Below are positions 9,452-50,769 of a DNA stretch of 64,000 nucleotides, one piece after another (positions within the stretch are counted from its first letter, which is position 1; the number at the start of each line of letters is the position of its first letter). The stretch is from assembly GCA_046539305.1 (NCBI GenBank), contig JBKHHE010000001.1:13150-77149 (forward strand), written 5' to 3'. The notes below the pieces were generated by a model. It was not told the DNA's origin. It did not search any database and saw only the letters and a program-made list of their open reading frames with translations. Source of the DNA: Candidatus Aenigmatarchaeota archaeon. Lineage in GTDB: Archaea; Aenigmatarchaeota; Aenigmatarchaeia; PWEA01. The translations under genes were made by a program, and so were the position numbers.

Positions 9452-9547
9452 ACTTCCACCTTTCTTCTCTTCTTTGCCCGACTTGATAAAGCTAAGCTCT
9501 TTTCAAAGAGGTCCTGTCAACCTGCCTGAGATCTGTCCTGAGGGAGA

Positions 9548-12470: not shown

Positions 12471-12549
12471 CAGTTATACCGGTATGCCAGCGGCTAGAAA
12501 GTATAAAAATCTCTCACGGAACAGGGTCCAAAGACCATTAACCATAACC

Positions 12550-12575
12550 TTTAAATAGTAGAAATGTTATTACTA
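12550..12575 (+). promoter_or_regulatory. Shared promoter/leader element, copy A (TTTAAATAGTAGAAATGTTATTACTA)
   Basis: Matches copy B at 47787-47812 at 25 of 26 positions. Contains a TATA box 40 nt upstream of ATG 12590. Confidence 0.6.
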
Positions 12576-12589
12576 TATCGTGATAAATT

Positions 12590-12856
12590 ATGAGTCTTTT
12601 TGGAGGAGTTCCGGGAGAAGACGAGAAGAAAGGTAGGAAAGACGTATCCATTATTTCCGTTGAGGAGGACCCTATAGACAGGAGTTTAGATGTTCCAGAA
12701 GAGTACCAGGAGAAATGTGCAAAGATAATTGAAAAGCACTACGGAGAAGGAGGGGAAATAGTGACGGAAGACCCCAGTACTATGGAAGGAATTTACAGAA
12801 ACTTGGACCCGGAAGGTCAGGGAAAACTGGACGAACTGCGGAAAGAATTCGAGTAG
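12590..12856 (+). CDS. Hypothetical acidic protein
   Basis: 88-aa ORF behind the shared 26-nt promoter element. Confidence 0.5.
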   Translation: MSLFGGVPGEDEKKGRKDVSIISVEEDPIDRSLDVPEEYQEKCAKIIEKHYGEGGEIVTEDPSTMEGIYRNLDPEGQGKLDELRKEFE

Positions 12857-30590: not shown

Positions 30591-31553
30591 TTAATCGCTA
30601 TTATTGTTGTTCTCGTCCTCCTTGACCTTCTTCTCCACTTCCTCTTCGATGCCAAGCGTCTCCACTATCTCCTTGTACCTGTTACGTATCGTAACTTCGG
30701 TCGCATCCACGACGTCGGCGACTTCCCTCTGGGTCTTCTTCTGTCCGGTCAGAACCGCAGCTATATACAGAGCAGCTGCGGCCACACCCACGGGACCCTT
30801 TCCAGAGGTTATCTCCTGATTCTTCGCCTTCTCAAGTATGTCCAGAGCCTTGGCCTGTGCCTCATCCGAAAGGCCGAGCATGGTAGAGAACCTGGGTATG
30901 TAGTCCTCGGGCTGCGAAGGAAGTATTCTTATCCCAAGCTCCCTGCAAACGTATCGGTAAGTCCTCCCTATCTCCCTTCTGTCCACGCCGGAGGCCTCGG
31001 TTATCTCGTCAAGCGTCCTGGGAGTCTTGTGTTGCCTGGCAACCGCGTAGATGAGGGCAGCCACGACCGCCTCCATCGAACGGCCCCTGACCAGGCCTTT
31101 ATCCACGGCCTTCTCGTACAGAATAGCGACCTCCCTGTGTACGGACTGGGGAAGTCCAAGGTACGAAACCAGCCTCTTTAGCTCGGAAAGCGCAAAGGAA
31201 AGGTTCCTGTTCTTGGATTCGACTATCCTGGACTGCCACTTCTTAAGACGGGAGTACTGGGCTCTCTTGTTCGGGTTGACCTTGAAAAGCTCGCCCGGAC
31301 CCTTGCCTATCTTTGTGGTCACGCCCTTGTCATGTTTGGTGGGCGTCAGCGGGGCTCCGGTTCTGGCCCTGTTTGATCTCTGCTCCTCGTCGAATGCGCG
31401 CCACTCCTGAGTCATGTCGATCATAGATTCCTCTATCACTTCACCGCACTCCGAACAGGTCAGTTCTCCCCTAGACTCGTTTTCCTCGAAGTTGGTGGAC
31501 CCGCACTCGGGACATACCTTCTGAGTCTTCGCCTTTTTTTCACGTGCAGACAT
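30591..31553 (-). CDS. tfb: Transcription initiation factor IIB (TFB), canonical copy
   Basis: Zn ribbon CPECG...CSECG, B-reader/linker, two cyclin folds. Confidence 0.95.
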   Translation of the reverse strand: MSAREKKAKTQKVCPECGSTNFEENESRGELTCSECGEVIEESMIDMTQEWRAFDEEQRSNRARTGAPLTPTKHDKGVTTKIGKGPGELFKVNPNKRAQYSRLKKWQSRIVESKNRNLSFALSELKRLVSYLGLPQSVHREVAILYEKAVDKGLVRGRSMEAVVAALIYAVARQHKTPRTLDEITEASGVDRREIGRTYRYVCRELGIRILPSQPEDYIPRFSTMLGLSDEAQAKALDILEKAKNQEITSGKGPVGVAAAALYIAAVLTGQKKTQREVADVVDATEVTIRNRYKEIVETLGIEEEVEKKVKEDENNNNSD

Positions 31554-31808
31554 AATATCACAGAGTTTTTACCATCGAGTAGTAATACATATGATTTCGT
31601 GTTCCTACTATTTAAAAGTTAGGGTTGATGTATTCACTGGGAAGGAGTGATTTGAGGGCTCGTATAAAAACTTTTCTATGGAGCGGTATATTTATCCATG
31701 CCTATATACTCTCTCGCACATATAAACTTTTGGGTGGTTTTCGTCGATTGTCGTTTTTCTTAGGAAGTTAGTTTTTTATTGACGCGTCAAGAAATAAATC
31801 TTGGTAGA

Positions 31809-40137: not shown

Positions 40138-41091
40138 TCAGTCCTTATTTTTATAAGGGTTCACCTCAAGGTCAAGCTCTTCAGCTATTTCCCTGTACCT
40201 GTCCCGCAGGGTAACCTCCGTAATACCGGCGATGTCGCTGAGCTCCACCTGAGTCACGTAATCTTCCCCGGCCATCATGCTAGCTATATATACTGCGGAT
40301 GCGGCTATCCCGGACGGAGACTTACCGCTGGAAATGTCTTCTTCTTCAGCGTACCTTGCAATTTCCTTTGCCTTCTTCGAGACGTGGTCCGGGACACCCA
40401 CCCCATCCGAATACCGGGGTACAAACACCTCGGGGCTTAGGGGAGAAGAAGGTAGACCGAGCTTCCTGGAAAGCTGTCTCTCAATCCTTGATATCTCCTT
40501 CTTGTCGCAGGGCGATACCTCCTGGATGTCCTGATACGTCACGGGCAAGTCATTCCTCTTGAGAACATGATGAAGAAGTGCCGAAGCCGATCCTTCAATG
40601 GACCTGCCCCTCAGTAGATCCTCCTTCGACGCTTCTTTAAACAGTTTCGCGGTTTCCTTCTGAACGTTCTTGGGAATATTAAGGGAGTGACCTGAAAGCT
40701 GTGAAGACATCCTCTTTATTTCCTGGTTCCCGATGATAACTGACCGGTCCTTACCTTCAGTTACACGGGATCTCTTGTTCCACTTCCGGAGCCTGTAGGC
40801 TTTTCTTCTCTCCTCGGGTGACAGGTCCTTTCCCCTGGAATCCTTGTCTTTATAGCTTACCCTCGTGGAGAGGTTATCATGCCTGAGCTCCGTGGGGGTT
40901 GGGCCTGCGCGGCTCTTTTCCTTCTTTTCCTCGTTGCTGTAAGCGCGCCACTCGGGACCCCTGTCCTTCAGCCCATCCTCTATAATCTTTCCTGACTCTC
41001 TGCAGATTATCTTCCCTTCGGCAGGTTTTTCCAGAACAGATGCCCCACAATCAGGGCATTCCTCGTATATACTCTGGGTTTCCTCGGACAT
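40138..41091 (-). CDS. tfb: Transcription initiation factor IIB (TFB), divergent second copy
   Basis: Zn ribbon CPDCG...; cyclin folds. The linker region differs from copy 1. Confidence 0.85.
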   Translation of the reverse strand: MSEETQSIYEECPDCGASVLEKPAEGKIICRESGKIIEDGLKDRGPEWRAYSNEEKKEKSRAGPTPTELRHDNLSTRVSYKDKDSRGKDLSPEERRKAYRLRKWNKRSRVTEGKDRSVIIGNQEIKRMSSQLSGHSLNIPKNVQKETAKLFKEASKEDLLRGRSIEGSASALLHHVLKRNDLPVTYQDIQEVSPCDKKEISRIERQLSRKLGLPSSPLSPEVFVPRYSDGVGVPDHVSKKAKEIARYAEEEDISSGKSPSGIAASAVYIASMMAGEDYVTQVELSDIAGITEVTLRDRYREIAEELDLEVNPYKNKD

Positions 41092-41155
41092 TTCCTGTAG
41101 GCTTCATCCGTTAAAATATTTAAGTTTTGAGAAACTTGAAACGGAAAACCAAAAC

Positions 41156-43747: not shown

Positions 43748-43919
43748 AGCCCCGACTCCTCGAAGAAGTTCTGGAAACCTATCCCCTCGACGAACCCAAA
43801 GTATAAAAGATTTAACACTGTATTGATATGAGATAATTGAAATGACTGAGGAAGAACTCGAGGCAGAAGAGGTCGAGAAGTACGGATCGCCTGACAAATC
43901 TCCGGATTAATGAGGAGAA

Positions 43920-44258
43920 CTAGCTCTTAGAGTGTGCCCGAATTCTTTCACTGCATTTCTCACATCTGTCTTTCAGGTCCTCCAAATTCTTTTCCAGGTC
44001 CACGGAGCCCAGATCCAGTTCGTCCCCGTAGTCAAGGGGGGTGTCATGGTCGAAGCCGCGCCCCTCCATCTCCCGCGCAAGCTCTTTGTGCCTCTCCTTT
44101 ATCCTGGAGGTGTCTACCTGTCCCTTCTCGGCATGCCCTCTTACAACTTCCGTATTTCCTTTTTCGATATGCCCGACCAGCTTGTGCAGCTCGTTGTGCT
44201 CTCCCAGGAGATGCTGTCTGCACAGGAGCTCCGGATCGACCATCCACATCCTTGTCAT
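43920..44258 (-). CDS. Pyrimidine-dimer DNA glycosylase-like / TIGR02328-like protein (from memory)
   Basis: MWMVDPELLCRQHLLGEHNELHKLVG N-terminal signature. Confidence 0.45.
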   Translation of the reverse strand: MTRMWMVDPELLCRQHLLGEHNELHKLVGHIEKGNTEVVRGHAEKGQVDTSRIKERHKELAREMEGRGFDHDTPLDYGDELDLGSVDLEKNLEDLKDRCEKCSERIRAHSKS

Positions 44259-47189: not shown

Positions 47190-47705
47190 TCAGTTTTCTT
47201 CAACTTTCTTGCCCTTCTCTTTGGGTACCACTTCTATTTCCGCACCTTCAAGCTCCTTTTCCAGCTCCTCGCCTTCCTGCAGCCTGTCGAGAAAAACTGC
47301 GAGCGCCGCCACCTCCGAGTGCGGCTGGTTGGTCACCGCGACCTGGAGGTCTATGTAGTCATAGATGTCTCCGGGAACCTTCTCCCCGCCCACAACGATA
47401 CAGAGGTCCTCGTCGTAGTTTCGAATTTCCTGAATCTCGTCCTGAACCGGCAGGCCGAACATCGCGAGGTAAACCCTCTTCCCGTCGAAGTTTTTAAGAT
47501 ACGTCTTCCAGCTTTCCCTGTATTTTATCTCGAAGCCGCCACCCCACTTCTCGACAACGTTCCGCACGTTTTTTTCCATCTTTTTGTCCTGGTCGCCTGT
47601 ATATACCATCCTTTCGGCCCCAAGTGCTCTGGATACCAGTGCACAGTGCGTGGTCATCCTTTTATCCCTGCCTGCGCGGTGGTTTAGTCTGAGGACTGTT
47701 AGCAT
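47190..47705 (-). CDS. trm56: tRNA (cytidine56-2'-O)-methyltransferase
   Basis: MLTVLRLNHRAGRDKRMTTHCALVSRALGA... SPOUT family, archaeal Trm56. Confidence 0.9.
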   Translation of the reverse strand: MLTVLRLNHRAGRDKRMTTHCALVSRALGAERMVYTGDQDKKMEKNVRNVVEKWGGGFEIKYRESWKTYLKNFDGKRVYLAMFGLPVQDEIQEIRNYDEDLCIVVGGEKVPGDIYDYIDLQVAVTNQPHSEVAALAVFLDRLQEGEELEKELEGAEIEVVPKEKGKKVEEN

Positions 47706-47727
47706 GGAAAAGTTTTATCTTGGAATT

Positions 47728-47762
47728 TTTAAATAGCTATAATTTCCCTTATAGTTATTACT
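47728..47762. promoter_or_regulatory. Split third copy of the element (TTTAAATAGC ... AGTTATTACT); its palindromic TATA probably also serves trm56
   Basis: TTTAAATAGC at 47728-47737 lies 23-30 nt from trm56 ATG 47705 on the other strand. AGTTATTACT is at 47753-47762. Confidence 0.4.
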
Positions 47763-47786
47763 TAAAGGTTAAAAATACCCCTAACT

Positions 47787-47812
47787 TTTAAATAGCAGAA
47801 ATGTTATTACTA
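47787..47812 (+). promoter_or_regulatory. Shared promoter/leader element, copy B (TTTAAATAGCAGAAATGTTATTACTA)
   Basis: See copy A. The similarity continues to the ATG (RTGATAAAnnATG). Confidence 0.6.
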
Positions 47813-47825
47813 AAACATGATAAAC

Positions 47826-48230
47826 ATGGATTATGAGGCTATTCAAGATTTCTTTGAGGACCCCACAATGGAGAAATATGAAAATATCCTAAATCAGGGA
47901 ATTCCACCTGAAACAGTAACTCAAGAGATAAGGAAGTATAACGATGCTCTGGCTTGTGCCAAACAGGCTGAACTGATAGAACAGGAAGCGGGACATGAAA
48001 AGTGGAGGAATAGGGGAAGTTTGTTTGAAGATGTTTTAAGACGTGCATGGCCTCTCGCAGGCGATGCAGTTACTGAAGGAATTGATTGCGCCGGTGACGC
48101 AGGCAAAAAGATAGCTTACCATACGGGTGAAATAGGCGAAGAAGCTGGAAGAACAGTAGGTAAGTTTGGAAAAGGCATGGGTCATGCTGCCAGTGGAATA
48201 GCTGAAGGTGTCCAAGAGGCAGAAAATTAA
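47826..48230 (+). CDS. Hypothetical protein (low-GC gene)
   Basis: Lies behind the shared 26-nt promoter element. ATG 47826 chosen by spacing analogy with 12590 (the ORF track starts at 47817). Confidence 0.5.
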   Translation: MDYEAIQDFFEDPTMEKYENILNQGIPPETVTQEIRKYNDALACAKQAELIEQEAGHEKWRNRGSLFEDVLRRAWPLAGDAVTEGIDCAGDAGKKIAYHTGEIGEEAGRTVGKFGKGMGHAASGIAEGVQEAEN

Positions 48231-48293
48231 CCCATATTTCCTTCAATTTCAAGAAGCCGGTTGTACTTGGAAGTTCTCTCACCTCTGGCAGGC

Positions 48294-48322
48294 GCGCCTG
48301 CTTTTATGCCGTAGGCTCCCAG
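48294..48322. repeat. 29-nt exact copy of enolase 3' coding sequence (49601-49629)
   Basis: Direct comparison. A diverged alignment extends to the stop codons (48227 / 49537). Confidence 0.9.
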
Positions 48323-48341
48323 AGCTCTGGAGGTGAGGGCG

Positions 48342-48394
48342 CAGTGCGTGGTCATCCTTTTATCCCTGCCTGCGCGGTGGTTTAGTCTGAGGAC
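48342..48394. repeat. 53-nt exact copy of trm56 5' coding sequence (47644-47696)
   Basis: Direct comparison of the two stretches. Flanks continue at lower identity. Confidence 0.9.
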
Positions 48395-48491
48395 CGCTAG
48401 CATAGGTAACAAAGGTGTTGTCCGGTATAAAATTCTTCCGGTCCCGGAAAAAGTTAAATAAATGAATTGAGAGAAGGTGTGTAGTGATGAG

Positions 48492-49526
48492 ATGTCCGAG
48501 GAAACTAAAAACAGAAAAACGGACCATATAAAAATCTGTGTGGAGAAGGACGTCGAGTTCAACAAGAAAAGTACACTTCTCGGGGAGGTAGTCCTGCCCA
48601 AGACGGTCCCGGACATGGACGCCAAAGACGTGGATCCAAGCACAGCTTTCCTGGGCAAGAAAATCTCGGCACCGGTCTTCGTGAACTCTATAACCGGGGG
48701 CGAGGAGAGAGCTGAAAAGATAAACAAGGACATAGCCGCGGCCTGCGAGGAGCTGGGACTTGGGATGGCCCTGGGCAGCCAGAGGGCGATGCTGGAGGAC
48801 AGATCGCTGGCCTACACATACGACGTGAGGGAGGAACACGATCCCGCCTTCCTCCTTGGAAATATAGGGATAGCACAGCTCGGGGAGTACACGGTCGAGG
48901 AACTGGAGTGGCTTGTCGAGAAGATAAACGGTGACGGCCTTTTCGTACATATAAATCCCGCGCAGGAGGCTGTCCAGCCGGAGGGAGACACCGACTTCAG
49001 CGGAGCCATGAAAAGGCTGGAAGAAATTGCCAAAAAGATGGATTATCCCGTAATTGCGAAACAGGTCGGAGAGGGAATATCCAGGAAAACGGCACAGAAA
49101 CTGAGTGAGATGAATCTGTACGGCGTCGACGTCGGAGGAGCCGGTGGGTCCGACTGGACCAAGATCGAGCAGCTGAGATCTGAGGACAACTACGGGGAGA
49201 CCTTCGAAAACTGGGGAATACCCACTGCACAGTCCCTGATAGATGTTCTGGAAACAGTTACCGGAGGAAAGGTAACTGCAACAGGAGGGATAAGGAACGG
49301 ACTACAAGTGGCAAAGTCTCTGGCTCTGGGAGCGGATGCCGCCGGACTCGCGCTTCCTGCATTAAAGGCTCAACAGAAGGAAGGAAAGGAAGGGGTCAAA
49401 GCGCTCCTTGAAAGGATGGTAGAGGAGTTGAAAATAGCTATGTTCCTCACAGACTCCGGCAGCGTAGAAGAGCTGAGGTCTCTGGATCCGAAGATATCAC
49501 CAAAACTGAGGAGCAGAATCGGATAG
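48492..49526 (+). CDS. fni: Isopentenyl-diphosphate delta-isomerase, type 2 (FMN-dependent)
   Basis: KTDHIKICVEKDVEF, LGSQRAML and TGGIRNG motifs. Confidence 0.9.
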   Translation: MSEETKNRKTDHIKICVEKDVEFNKKSTLLGEVVLPKTVPDMDAKDVDPSTAFLGKKISAPVFVNSITGGEERAEKINKDIAAACEELGLGMALGSQRAMLEDRSLAYTYDVREEHDPAFLLGNIGIAQLGEYTVEELEWLVEKINGDGLFVHINPAQEAVQPEGDTDFSGAMKRLEEIAKKMDYPVIAKQVGEGISRKTAQKLSEMNLYGVDVGGAGGSDWTKIEQLRSEDNYGETFENWGIPTAQSLIDVLETVTGGKVTATGGIRNGLQVAKSLALGADAAGLALPALKAQQKEGKEGVKALLERMVEELKIAMFLTDSGSVEELRSLDPKISPKLRSRIG

Positions 49527-49536
49527 CTCTAACAAG

Positions 49537-50769
49537 TTAAAGTTCTTCTTCAACCCTGAGAAGCCTGTTATACTTCGCGGTCCTTTCTCCCCTGGCAGGT
49601 GCGCCTGCTTTTATGCCGTAGGCTCCCAGGGCCACGGCCAGGTCCGATATAAAAGGATCGGTAGTCTCGCCGCTCCGGTGGGAAACTATCACTTTCCAGT
49701 CGTTCGACTTCGCCAGTTTGGCAGCTTCCATGGCCTCGGTCAGCGTACCTATCTGATTGACCTTGAGAAGTAGGGTGTCGCAAGCTTCCTTTTCTATCGC
49801 CTTCTCTATCCTGCCCGGATTCGTCACCAAAAGATCGTCCCCCACGACTCTCGCCTCCGTTCCTTCGTTCAACGAGGCAAACGCCTCGAAGTCCTCCTCG
49901 TCAAAGGGATCCTCTATAGAAAGGATAGGGTAGTTTTCGATTAGCTCTAGCCAGAAATCCTCCAGCTGTTCCTGATTCATAACTCTGTTGTCTATGGCGT
50001 AGTCCCCGTCTTCGTAGAACTGGGAGGCTGCGGCGTCCATCGCCAGCTTGACATCCTTTCCAGGCCTGTACCCGGCCACCTCCGTAGCTTCTATCAGAAG
50101 GTCCAGGGCGTCCTCCGTTTTTGTGAGGGAGGGAGCGAAACCTCCCTCGTCGCCAACGTTCACCGCCTCCTTTCCGTATCGGCTTTCGAGAATTCCTTCC
50201 AGGCCGTGGTAAATCTCCGCCGTCGCCTGGATATTTTTACTGAAGTCCTCGAAGAGTGGTACAATCATGAACTCCTGTACTGCGAGGTCGTTGCCGGCGT
50301 GCTCACCACCGTTGATTACGTTCAGAAAGGGTCTCGGAATTTCCATTTTTCCGCCAGAAGAAAACTTTTCATGAAGGAGCTTGTAGAGCTCTTTATCCTT
50401 CTCATCAGCAGCAGCTCTGGCCGCTGCTAGAGAAACCGAAAGAATCGCATTCGCCCCTAGGGTGCTTTTGTCTTCCGTCCCGTCCAGGTCTATCATCCTT
50501 TCGTCCAGCTCCTCCGGGTTCTGACAGTCCGCACCTTCCAGCTCCTCTTTTATCTCGTTCTCCACCACAGACACGGCCTTCTGCACGCCCTTGCCGCCGT
50601 ATCTTCTGCCGCCATCGCGCAGCTCCAGCGCCTCGTTTTCTCCCGTAGAAGCTCCCGAAGGAACGGCGGCCTTGCCACAGCTCTCTTCGGTTATCACTTC
50701 CGTCTCCACCGTCGGGTCGCCCCTTGAATCAAGAATTTCTCTGGCTTTGATATCCTTTATAGCCGACAT
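49537..50769 (-). CDS. eno: Enolase
   Basis: MSAIKDIKAREILDSRGDPTVE...SHRSGET. ATG 50769 with TTTATAAAAAA 22-32 nt upstream. Confidence 0.95.
   Translation of the reverse strand: MSAIKDIKAREILDSRGDPTVETEVITEESCGKAAVPSGASTGENEALELRDGGRRYGGKGVQKAVSVVENEIKEELEGADCQNPEELDERMIDLDGTEDKSTLGANAILSVSLAAARAAADEKDKELYKLLHEKFSSGGKMEIPRPFLNVINGGEHAGNDLAVQEFMIVPLFEDFSKNIQATAEIYHGLEGILESRYGKEAVNVGDEGGFAPSLTKTEDALDLLIEATEVAGYRPGKDVKLAMDAAASQFYEDGDYAIDNRVMNQEQLEDFWLELIENYPILSIEDPFDEEDFEAFASLNEGTEARVVGDDLLVTNPGRIEKAIEKEACDTLLLKVNQIGTLTEAMEAAKLAKSNDWKVIVSHRSGETTDPFISDLAVALGAYGIKAGAPARGERTAKYNRLLRVEEEL

Follow-up and report, generated by a model that had tools for sequence, protein, structure and literature searches.

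An in-frame trm56-enolase chimeric ORF in an Aenigmatarchaeota archaeon as the probable joint between two alleles of a variable gene slot

Homology-facilitated illegitimate recombination (HFIR) is known from transformable bacteria and from E. coli conjugation (de Vries & Wackernagel 2002, Prudhomme et al. 2002, cited in PMC5361080; PMC3240628). The displaced gene ends found beside old cargo in bacterial T6SS/Rhs arrays are a known signature attributed to this process (PMC5361080; PMC3240628). Homologous recombination has been reported in a DPANN population (PMC5905446). The locus described here belongs to a DPANN archaeon and resembles these cases in several respects. It lies in a stretch of 64,000 nucleotides, the window, from a Candidatus Aenigmatarchaeota archaeon (assembly GCA_046539305.1, contig JBKHHE010000001.1, positions 13,150 to 77,149), where an ORF of 58 codons at 48227-48403 on the minus strand combines the start of trm56 with the end of the enolase gene. 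We argue from comparison of sequences that this ORF probably marks the joint formed when the eno-trm56 slot, without losing its resident allele, gained a second, diverged allele next to it.

Structure of the chimeric ORF and its neighbourhood

The chimera lies between its two parents, each separated from it by a gene on the opposite strand. Resident trm56 (47190-47705, minus strand) encodes tRNA C56 2'-O-methyltransferase, a protein of 171 aa that carries the PF01994 domain at residues 54-168 (E 2.8e-43) and is 66-75% identical to other Aenigmatarchaeota Trm56 proteins; its first 90 nt correspond to one part of the chimera. The other part corresponds to the last ~96 nt of resident enolase (49537-50769, minus strand; 410 aa as called in the MAGs L001 and L002), which matches PF00113/PF03952 (Enolase_C and Enolase_N, E 6e-104). 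The genes between, which we call cargo, are X (47817-48230, plus strand; alternative start at 47826), an orphan of 137 aa convergent with the chimera, with which it shares overlapping stop codons (TTAA, 48227-48230), and fni (48492-49526, plus strand), which encodes a type 2 isopentenyl-diphosphate isomerase (TIGR02151, 362 bits against a cutoff of 281) and is convergent with enolase. GC3 is 0.62-0.66 in the neighbouring core genes and 0.62 in fni, a value typical of the genome, but 0.32 in X, which is compositionally odd. Family matches and GC3 together bear out the first-pass annotation of these neighbours as trm56, a low-GC gene, fni and enolase.

Gene X has no match in Pfam, PHROG or NCBIfam, and among 5.8 billion proteins only identical copies of it were found; one credible distant homologue, P0136 (E 3e-6), stands in an unrelated context. 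Four of the six matches returned in searches with X were discarded as score inflation from perfectly repetitive proteins. The region between trm56 and X (47706-47816) is AT-rich (~28% GC) and serves as a divergent promoter region, with two copies of the promoter-like motif TTTTAAATAGC. The motif belongs to a tandem arrangement, TTTTAAATAGC ... GTTATTACT, with copies at 47724-47737 and 47783-47796 and at 47754-47775 and 47803-47824, respectively 59 and 49 nt apart. Part of this region recurs elsewhere in the window: a 49-nt repeat, 47776-47824 and 12539-12587 (86% identical, E 2.5e-8), which includes a TATA-like box, TTTAAATAG, and leader, precedes both X and an unrelated orphan ORF of 88 aa (12590-12856; GC3 0.46; no Pfam or NCBIfam match), and seems to be a promoter module common to these two orphan genes.

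The translation of the chimeric ORF, reproduced here exactly as first read, is MLAVLRLNHRAGRDKRMTTHCALTSRALGA followed by YGIKAGAPARGERTSKYNRLLEIEGNMG, the joint falling between them; codons 1-30 of trm56 run on, in frame, into the final 31 enolase codons, and the enolase-type end reads ...TSKYNRLLEIEGNMG. The trm56-derived part (48314-48403, minus strand) aligns with 47616-47705 at 79 of 90 nt (E 1.5e-27), and matches the trm56 allele of another assembly, L001, at 76 of 90. The enolase-derived part (48227-48325, minus strand), comprising the last 31-32 codons and the stop, aligns with resident enolase over 85 nt at 81-85% identity (48241-48325 with 49548-49632), the blastn core of the similarity being 63/74 (E 7e-19). 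Each alignment contains a tract of exact identity, of 53 nt with trm56 (48342-48394 = 47644-47696) and of 29 nt with enolase (48294-48322 = 49601-49629), both as reported at first pass. These similarities go far beyond chance. Self-BLAST of the window finds only the two repeats that involve the chimera and the unrelated 49-nt repeat already mentioned, and a six-frame all-against-all protein search of the window reveals no further copied gene fragment. The sole pair of paralogues at the protein level in the window is 40141-41103 and 30594-31568 (minus strand), 36% identical over 313 aa.

The trm56 and enolase similarities overlap at 48314-48325 (minus strand), the ALGA codons GCT CTG GGA GCC, which are common to both parents, as codons 27-30 of trm56 and codons -31 to -28 of enolase; the illegitimate join lies within these 12 nt, where the first-pass annotation had placed it, and at most 12 nt of microhomology were available to it. 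The 12-mer of resident enolase, GCCCTGGGAGCC, is also present in trm56 of two relatives, L089 and L094. Because trm56 and enolase have a common reading frame for ALGA, the joint is in frame automatically, no selection being needed. At its outer limits the similarity to trm56 ends exactly at the ATG and that to enolase near the stop, as would be expected if only coding DNA were conserved between donor and recipient.

Profile searches recognise both halves. NCBIfam models match the 58-aa product as Trm56 at residues 2-34 (E 1e-11) and as enolase at residues 8-57 (E 1.4e-7), which, with the nucleotide similarity, upholds the description of an in-frame trm56-5'/enolase-3' chimera. As a member of either family it falls far short: NF003048 (aTrm56) scores 45 bits against a cutoff of 223, with no PF01994 match, and TIGR01060 (enolase) 30.5 bits against 300, covering model positions 363-410 of 425; the PF00113 match spans only 49 of 296 model positions. 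Although a fragment, the ORF exceeds the gathering score of Pfam Enolase_C, and this calls for caution in annotation, as it is labelled a hypothetical protein in three MAGs deposited at NCBI. The Trm56 N-terminus, NHRAGRDKRMTTHCALTSRALGA, is loosely like the enolase segment that precedes ALGA, SHRSGETTDPFISDLAVALGA (chimera residues 8-30), and for this reason the Pfam and NCBIfam enolase alignments extend over most of the chimera (residues 8-58).

Recurrence of the locus and content of the eno-trm56 interval

The same ORF in the same gene order is present in at least four independent assemblies: the window contig, L001 (GCA_046545755.1), L002 (GCA_046540015.1) and L003 (Logan SRR21542051). L001, for example, is a 9.5-kb contig that reads apgM - eno - fni - ORF - X - trm56 - wyosine gene. 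Against the window, L001-L003 show 99.8-99.9% identity and SNPs that are scattered, and they therefore represent independent populations; strain diversity is ~0.1-0.2%. Several public contigs break in the trm56 5' repeat—the end of L002, and L098-L100, which start at the position corresponding to window 48365—and P0013 is a truncated trm56. Such breaks arise because a genuine repeat of 32-53 nt fragments short-read assemblies, and the chimera in this way gives rise to 'partial' trm56 annotations.

Strain differences are also seen on either side of this locus. From ~52150 onward, just past apgM, L001 (1-970) has no similarity to the window; it carries a gene for a CYTH-domain protein where the window and L002 have a 52-aa ORF and a nucleotidyltransferase (NTP_transf_2) gene, and the region appears to be a second strain-variable slot, ~4 kb from the chimera. 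On the other side, half of the SNPs that distinguish L001 from the window, nine of 18, are clustered in ~100 nt (window 43865-43970; L001 9150-9542), and L001 has ~230 extra bases before similarity resumes (9488-9542 = 43881-43827), which suggests local recombination or an indel between strains.

In the closest relatives sampled, enolase and trm56 are adjacent to the same interval and point in the same direction, but the genes between them differ. The order is eno-RDD-trm56 in L004 and L090, whose Trm56 proteins are 72% and 75% identical to that of the window; eno-MazE-PIN-trm56 in L089 (71%); MazE-PIN-trm56 in L095 (73%); and, in the window, eno-fni(-)-chimera-X(-)-trm56. In more distant relatives trm56 is preceded by other small genes, and enolase is not nearby. 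Because its content differs in this way among relatives—RDD, MazE-PIN, or fni and X—the eno-trm56 interval is a variable cargo slot between two conserved genes. Both halves of the window locus follow one layout, an eno-type 3' end convergent with cargo, then a divergent promoter, then a trm56-type start, so that they look like two alleles of one slot placed in tandem.

A locus of the form eno-fni-trm56 or eno-X-trm56, which might represent a donor or ancestral allele, is not among the sampled loci and contigs listed. When GTDB species representatives were scanned using an alignment of Trm56, neither fni nor X stood beside trm56 in any of the 80 loci listed; a metagenome scan with Fni gave, among the matches listed, only two relatives, at 48-50% identity; and no full-length gene with the exact sequence of the chimera is among the matches listed. 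A donor was, in short, not identifiable among these sequences.

Divergence of the two pieces and origin of the joint

The divergence of the pieces from their resident counterparts is informative as to where they came from. We compared the trm56 part with trm56 of the L001 type, the window copy having been converted in part (see below). Eleven codons differ, nine of them purely synonymously. In the enolase part 11 of 25 conserved codons differ, 10 of them synonymously, and amino-acid differences are otherwise confined to the naturally variable last six residues. By the Nei-Gojobori method over 51 codons, Sd = 19 and Nd = 4, giving dS = 0.76 and dN/dS = 0.05, a signal carried by no more than 51-57 codons. 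Neutral decay of the chimera alongside a constrained parent is rejected by these counts (P = 4e-5; P = 0.006 if the enolase tail is included).

Several of the variants are, moreover, those of relatives. The enolase tail of the chimera, TSKYNRLLEI, resembles that of L089 enolase, and the resident tail, TAKYNRLLRV, those of L004 and L090; chimera trm56 codons 21-24 and 27-29 match L094, L089 and L004, not the resident gene. Parsimony polarisation with 3-5 outgroups suggests at least as many derived changes in the resident genes as in the chimera, but synonymous sites are near saturation against these outgroups, and we give the result no weight. Because the divergence is large and almost purely synonymous, where diversity among strains is only 0.1-0.2%, it would appear that, for most of the time over which they diverged, the two pieces were parts of functional genes in a different lineage.

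Addition of a diverged allele to the slot would account for these features in the following way. An incoming segment consisting of an enolase 3' end, cargo and a trm56 5' end, from a related but diverged lineage, would recombine into the locus, one of its ends anchored by homology in a conserved flanking gene and the other closed illegitimately through the microhomology at ALGA (≤12 nt). The product, eno - fni - [trm56 5' | eno 3'] - X - trm56, could be reached in a single event by homology-facilitated illegitimate insertion, or, also counted as one event, by circularisation of the segment at the microhomology followed by single-crossover integration; tandem duplication followed by replacement of one cargo would lead to the same product. 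The newcomer would be either fni or X. The GC3 of X (0.32) gives it a foreign look; hot-spot cargo is often AT-rich wherever it is resident.

The first-pass annotation had proposed a tandem duplication of the resident genes. In its full form this alternative holds that duplication occurred in this genome, with end points at trm56 codon 30 and enolase codon -31, by unequal crossover at ALGA, that the cargo was later replaced or the copies differentially lost, and that the chimera then drifted. We consider it unlikely, though it has points to commend it. The order [eno 3'][trm56 5'], recognised at first pass as that of a novel junction and supported here, is that of a duplication join point, with microhomology at the joint; enolase and trm56 are ancestral neighbours; and if one cargo was replaced through homologous recombination between its flanks and those of a diverged allele, diverged arms would be imported with it, which could mimic the divergence observed. 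Against it, the intervening segments are not copies of each other, since 47706-48226 and 48404-49536 have no DNA or protein similarity, as the first reading had already noted. The differences are nearly all synonymous (19 against 4), at odds with unconstrained divergence after a plain duplication at the P values of 4e-5 to 0.006 given above, and even at dS 0.76 the ORF has remained intact. Duplication would also call for at least two more events, and is therefore a less parsimonious account than one in which a second allele was added directly. The pieces are, in sum, too diverged, and almost only synonymously so, to be taken as copies of the resident genes, and the best reading appears to be the stacking of a diverged allele. 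The puzzle of two unrelated intervening segments is resolved under allele stacking because the slot varies among relatives and two of its alleles would stand here in tandem.

The chimera has exchanged sequence with trm56. Within that gene, the only differences that set L001 and L002 apart from the window are at 47649, 47661 and 47664; all three are third codon positions and synonymous, and at each the window carries the base of the chimera (48347, 48359, 48362). This is a recent gene-conversion patch of 16-53 nt, spanning at least 47649-47664 and at most the identical tract 47644-47696 (minus strand), transferred from the chimera to functional trm56 in the window strain. Gene conversion also accounts for part of the 53-nt identity between the two.

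Whether the chimera is itself a gene bears on how the synonymous excess is read, for purifying selection on the chimera would give the same dN/dS signal. The intergenic region 48404-48491, a divergent promoter region between the chimera and fni, contains TTTTATA (48426-48432, minus strand), ending ~22-25 nt before the chimeric ATG. This is the TATA-like element seen at first pass, which we confirm, with the box ending ~22-24 nt from the ATG; the same spacing is found at resident trm56 and at trm56 of L004 and L006. In archaeal promoters such spacing fits a leaderless transcript. Having retained a trm56-type promoter, the chimera may be transcribed, and a leaderless transcript encoding the 58-aa peptide is plausible.

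If the chimera were a new gene, formed by fusion and expressed as a micro-protein under selection, the low dN/dS (0.05) would accordingly be explained, and the ORF is intact, has a TATA box at the right distance, and is unchanged in four assemblies. We nevertheless regard this explanation as improbable. Conservation in the four assemblies carries no information, because they are 99.8-99.9% identical. Among 5.8 billion proteins the ORF has no homologue beyond identical copies, which form a single cluster, with no homologue of the whole ORF in other lineages; it is absent from the related eno-trm56 loci (L004, L090, L089, L095 and the more distant ones), which speaks for the original description of a rearrangement scar and not of an independent family conserved in related genomes. 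Other matches to the ORF were rejected as homologues, being ordinary C-terminal fragments of enolase or, in the case of P0009, a piece of a frameshifted enolase. The residues conserved are those required by the parent folds, and these folds are absent from the 58-aa fragment, which has neither the Trm56 SPOUT domain nor the enolase barrel; its single-sequence AlphaFold2 model is of low confidence and uninformative, with a pLDDT of 52 and a pTM of 0.18. The peptide is most likely a non-functional by-product of the joint. A more specific proposal, a newborn, transcribed and selected micro-protein in which the promoter and initial strand-helix of trm56 are coupled to the final strand-helix of enolase, and which might, for instance, modulate the assembly of enolase or Trm56, we hold to be improbable, a shade more so than micro-protein birth in general.

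A site-specific integrative element that targets the trm56 5' end or the enolase 3' end, and leaves the chimera as its duplicated attachment site, has very little likelihood. Direct repeats of gene ends do flank a short, low-GC segment with an orphan gene. However, X or fni is all that is encoded in the segments that separate the repeats (698 and 1307 bp), no integrase ORF is found there, and the arrangement of the repeats is interleaved, not nested, with copies in the order trm56, eno, trm56, eno. The 64-kb window contains neither a tRNA gene nor an Rfam element, and X has no PHROG match or relative on a viral contig; an integrative element or provirus was rejected on these grounds.

That the chimera is merely an assembly product of two co-existing strains, eno-fni-trm56 and eno-X-trm56, can be dismissed with near certainty, together with the mis-assembly envisaged in the first-pass annotation: several assemblies do break inside the repeats, but four independent ones (L001, L002, L003 and the window), from different samples, carry the junction with both flanks and cross it with identical sequence, the parents share ≤12 nt at the joint, below the k-mer size of any assembler, and the breaks are those that a true 32-53-nt repeat yields.

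Comparison with known systems

We regard the chimera as a by-product of rearrangement of an ordinary sort and not as a new family of genes. Its interest lies in what it would record, a sequence-level footprint of gene acquisition in a genome-reduced DPANN archaeon in which both cargoes have been kept. It also supplies direct repeats of 85-90 nt that already exchange sequence with the real trm56. With two such pairs of repeats, the locus is predicted to resolve by deletion to either single-cargo form, eno-fni-trm56 or eno-X-trm56, with intact flanking genes in both, and such a naturally marked locus could serve to gauge recombination in an uncultivated lineage from population metagenomes.

The exchange with trm56 is like pseudogene-templated gene conversion in that a partial, non-functional copy has given a short patch, here three linked synonymous changes at 47649-47664; it differs in that no antigenic or functional variation results, all of the converted sites being synonymous. 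Fusion ORFs at tandem-duplication join points share with the chimera the order of a 3' piece of the downstream gene followed by a 5' piece of the upstream gene, joined at microhomology, and they too can be in-frame hybrids served by the promoter of the upstream gene. A plain duplication, however, leaves identical intervening segments and copies that are initially identical to their parents, whereas the segments here are unrelated and the copies stand at dS ~0.76 from the parents.

The likeness to HFIR extends further: a homology anchor in a conserved gene at one end and a microhomology join at the other, foreign DNA added, and a partial copy of a recipient or donor gene remaining at the joint. 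Experimental demonstrations of HFIR are known only from bacteria, whereas we invoke it for a DPANN archaeon from sequence, and here the joint is in frame between two unrelated housekeeping genes. The orphan 3' ends and orphan immunity genes of T6SS/Rhs/CDI arrays, described as the outcome of 'sequential displacement' (PMC5361080), offer a similar picture of a conserved flank and variable cargo, with a new allele inserted and the old 3' gene end and its cargo shifted downstream, not deleted. Those arrays consist of toxin-immunity modules under conflict-driven selection; in the Aenigmatarchaeota locus enolase and a tRNA methyltransferase form the flanks, a housekeeping isomerase and an orphan gene make up the cargo, and only one step of displacement is seen.
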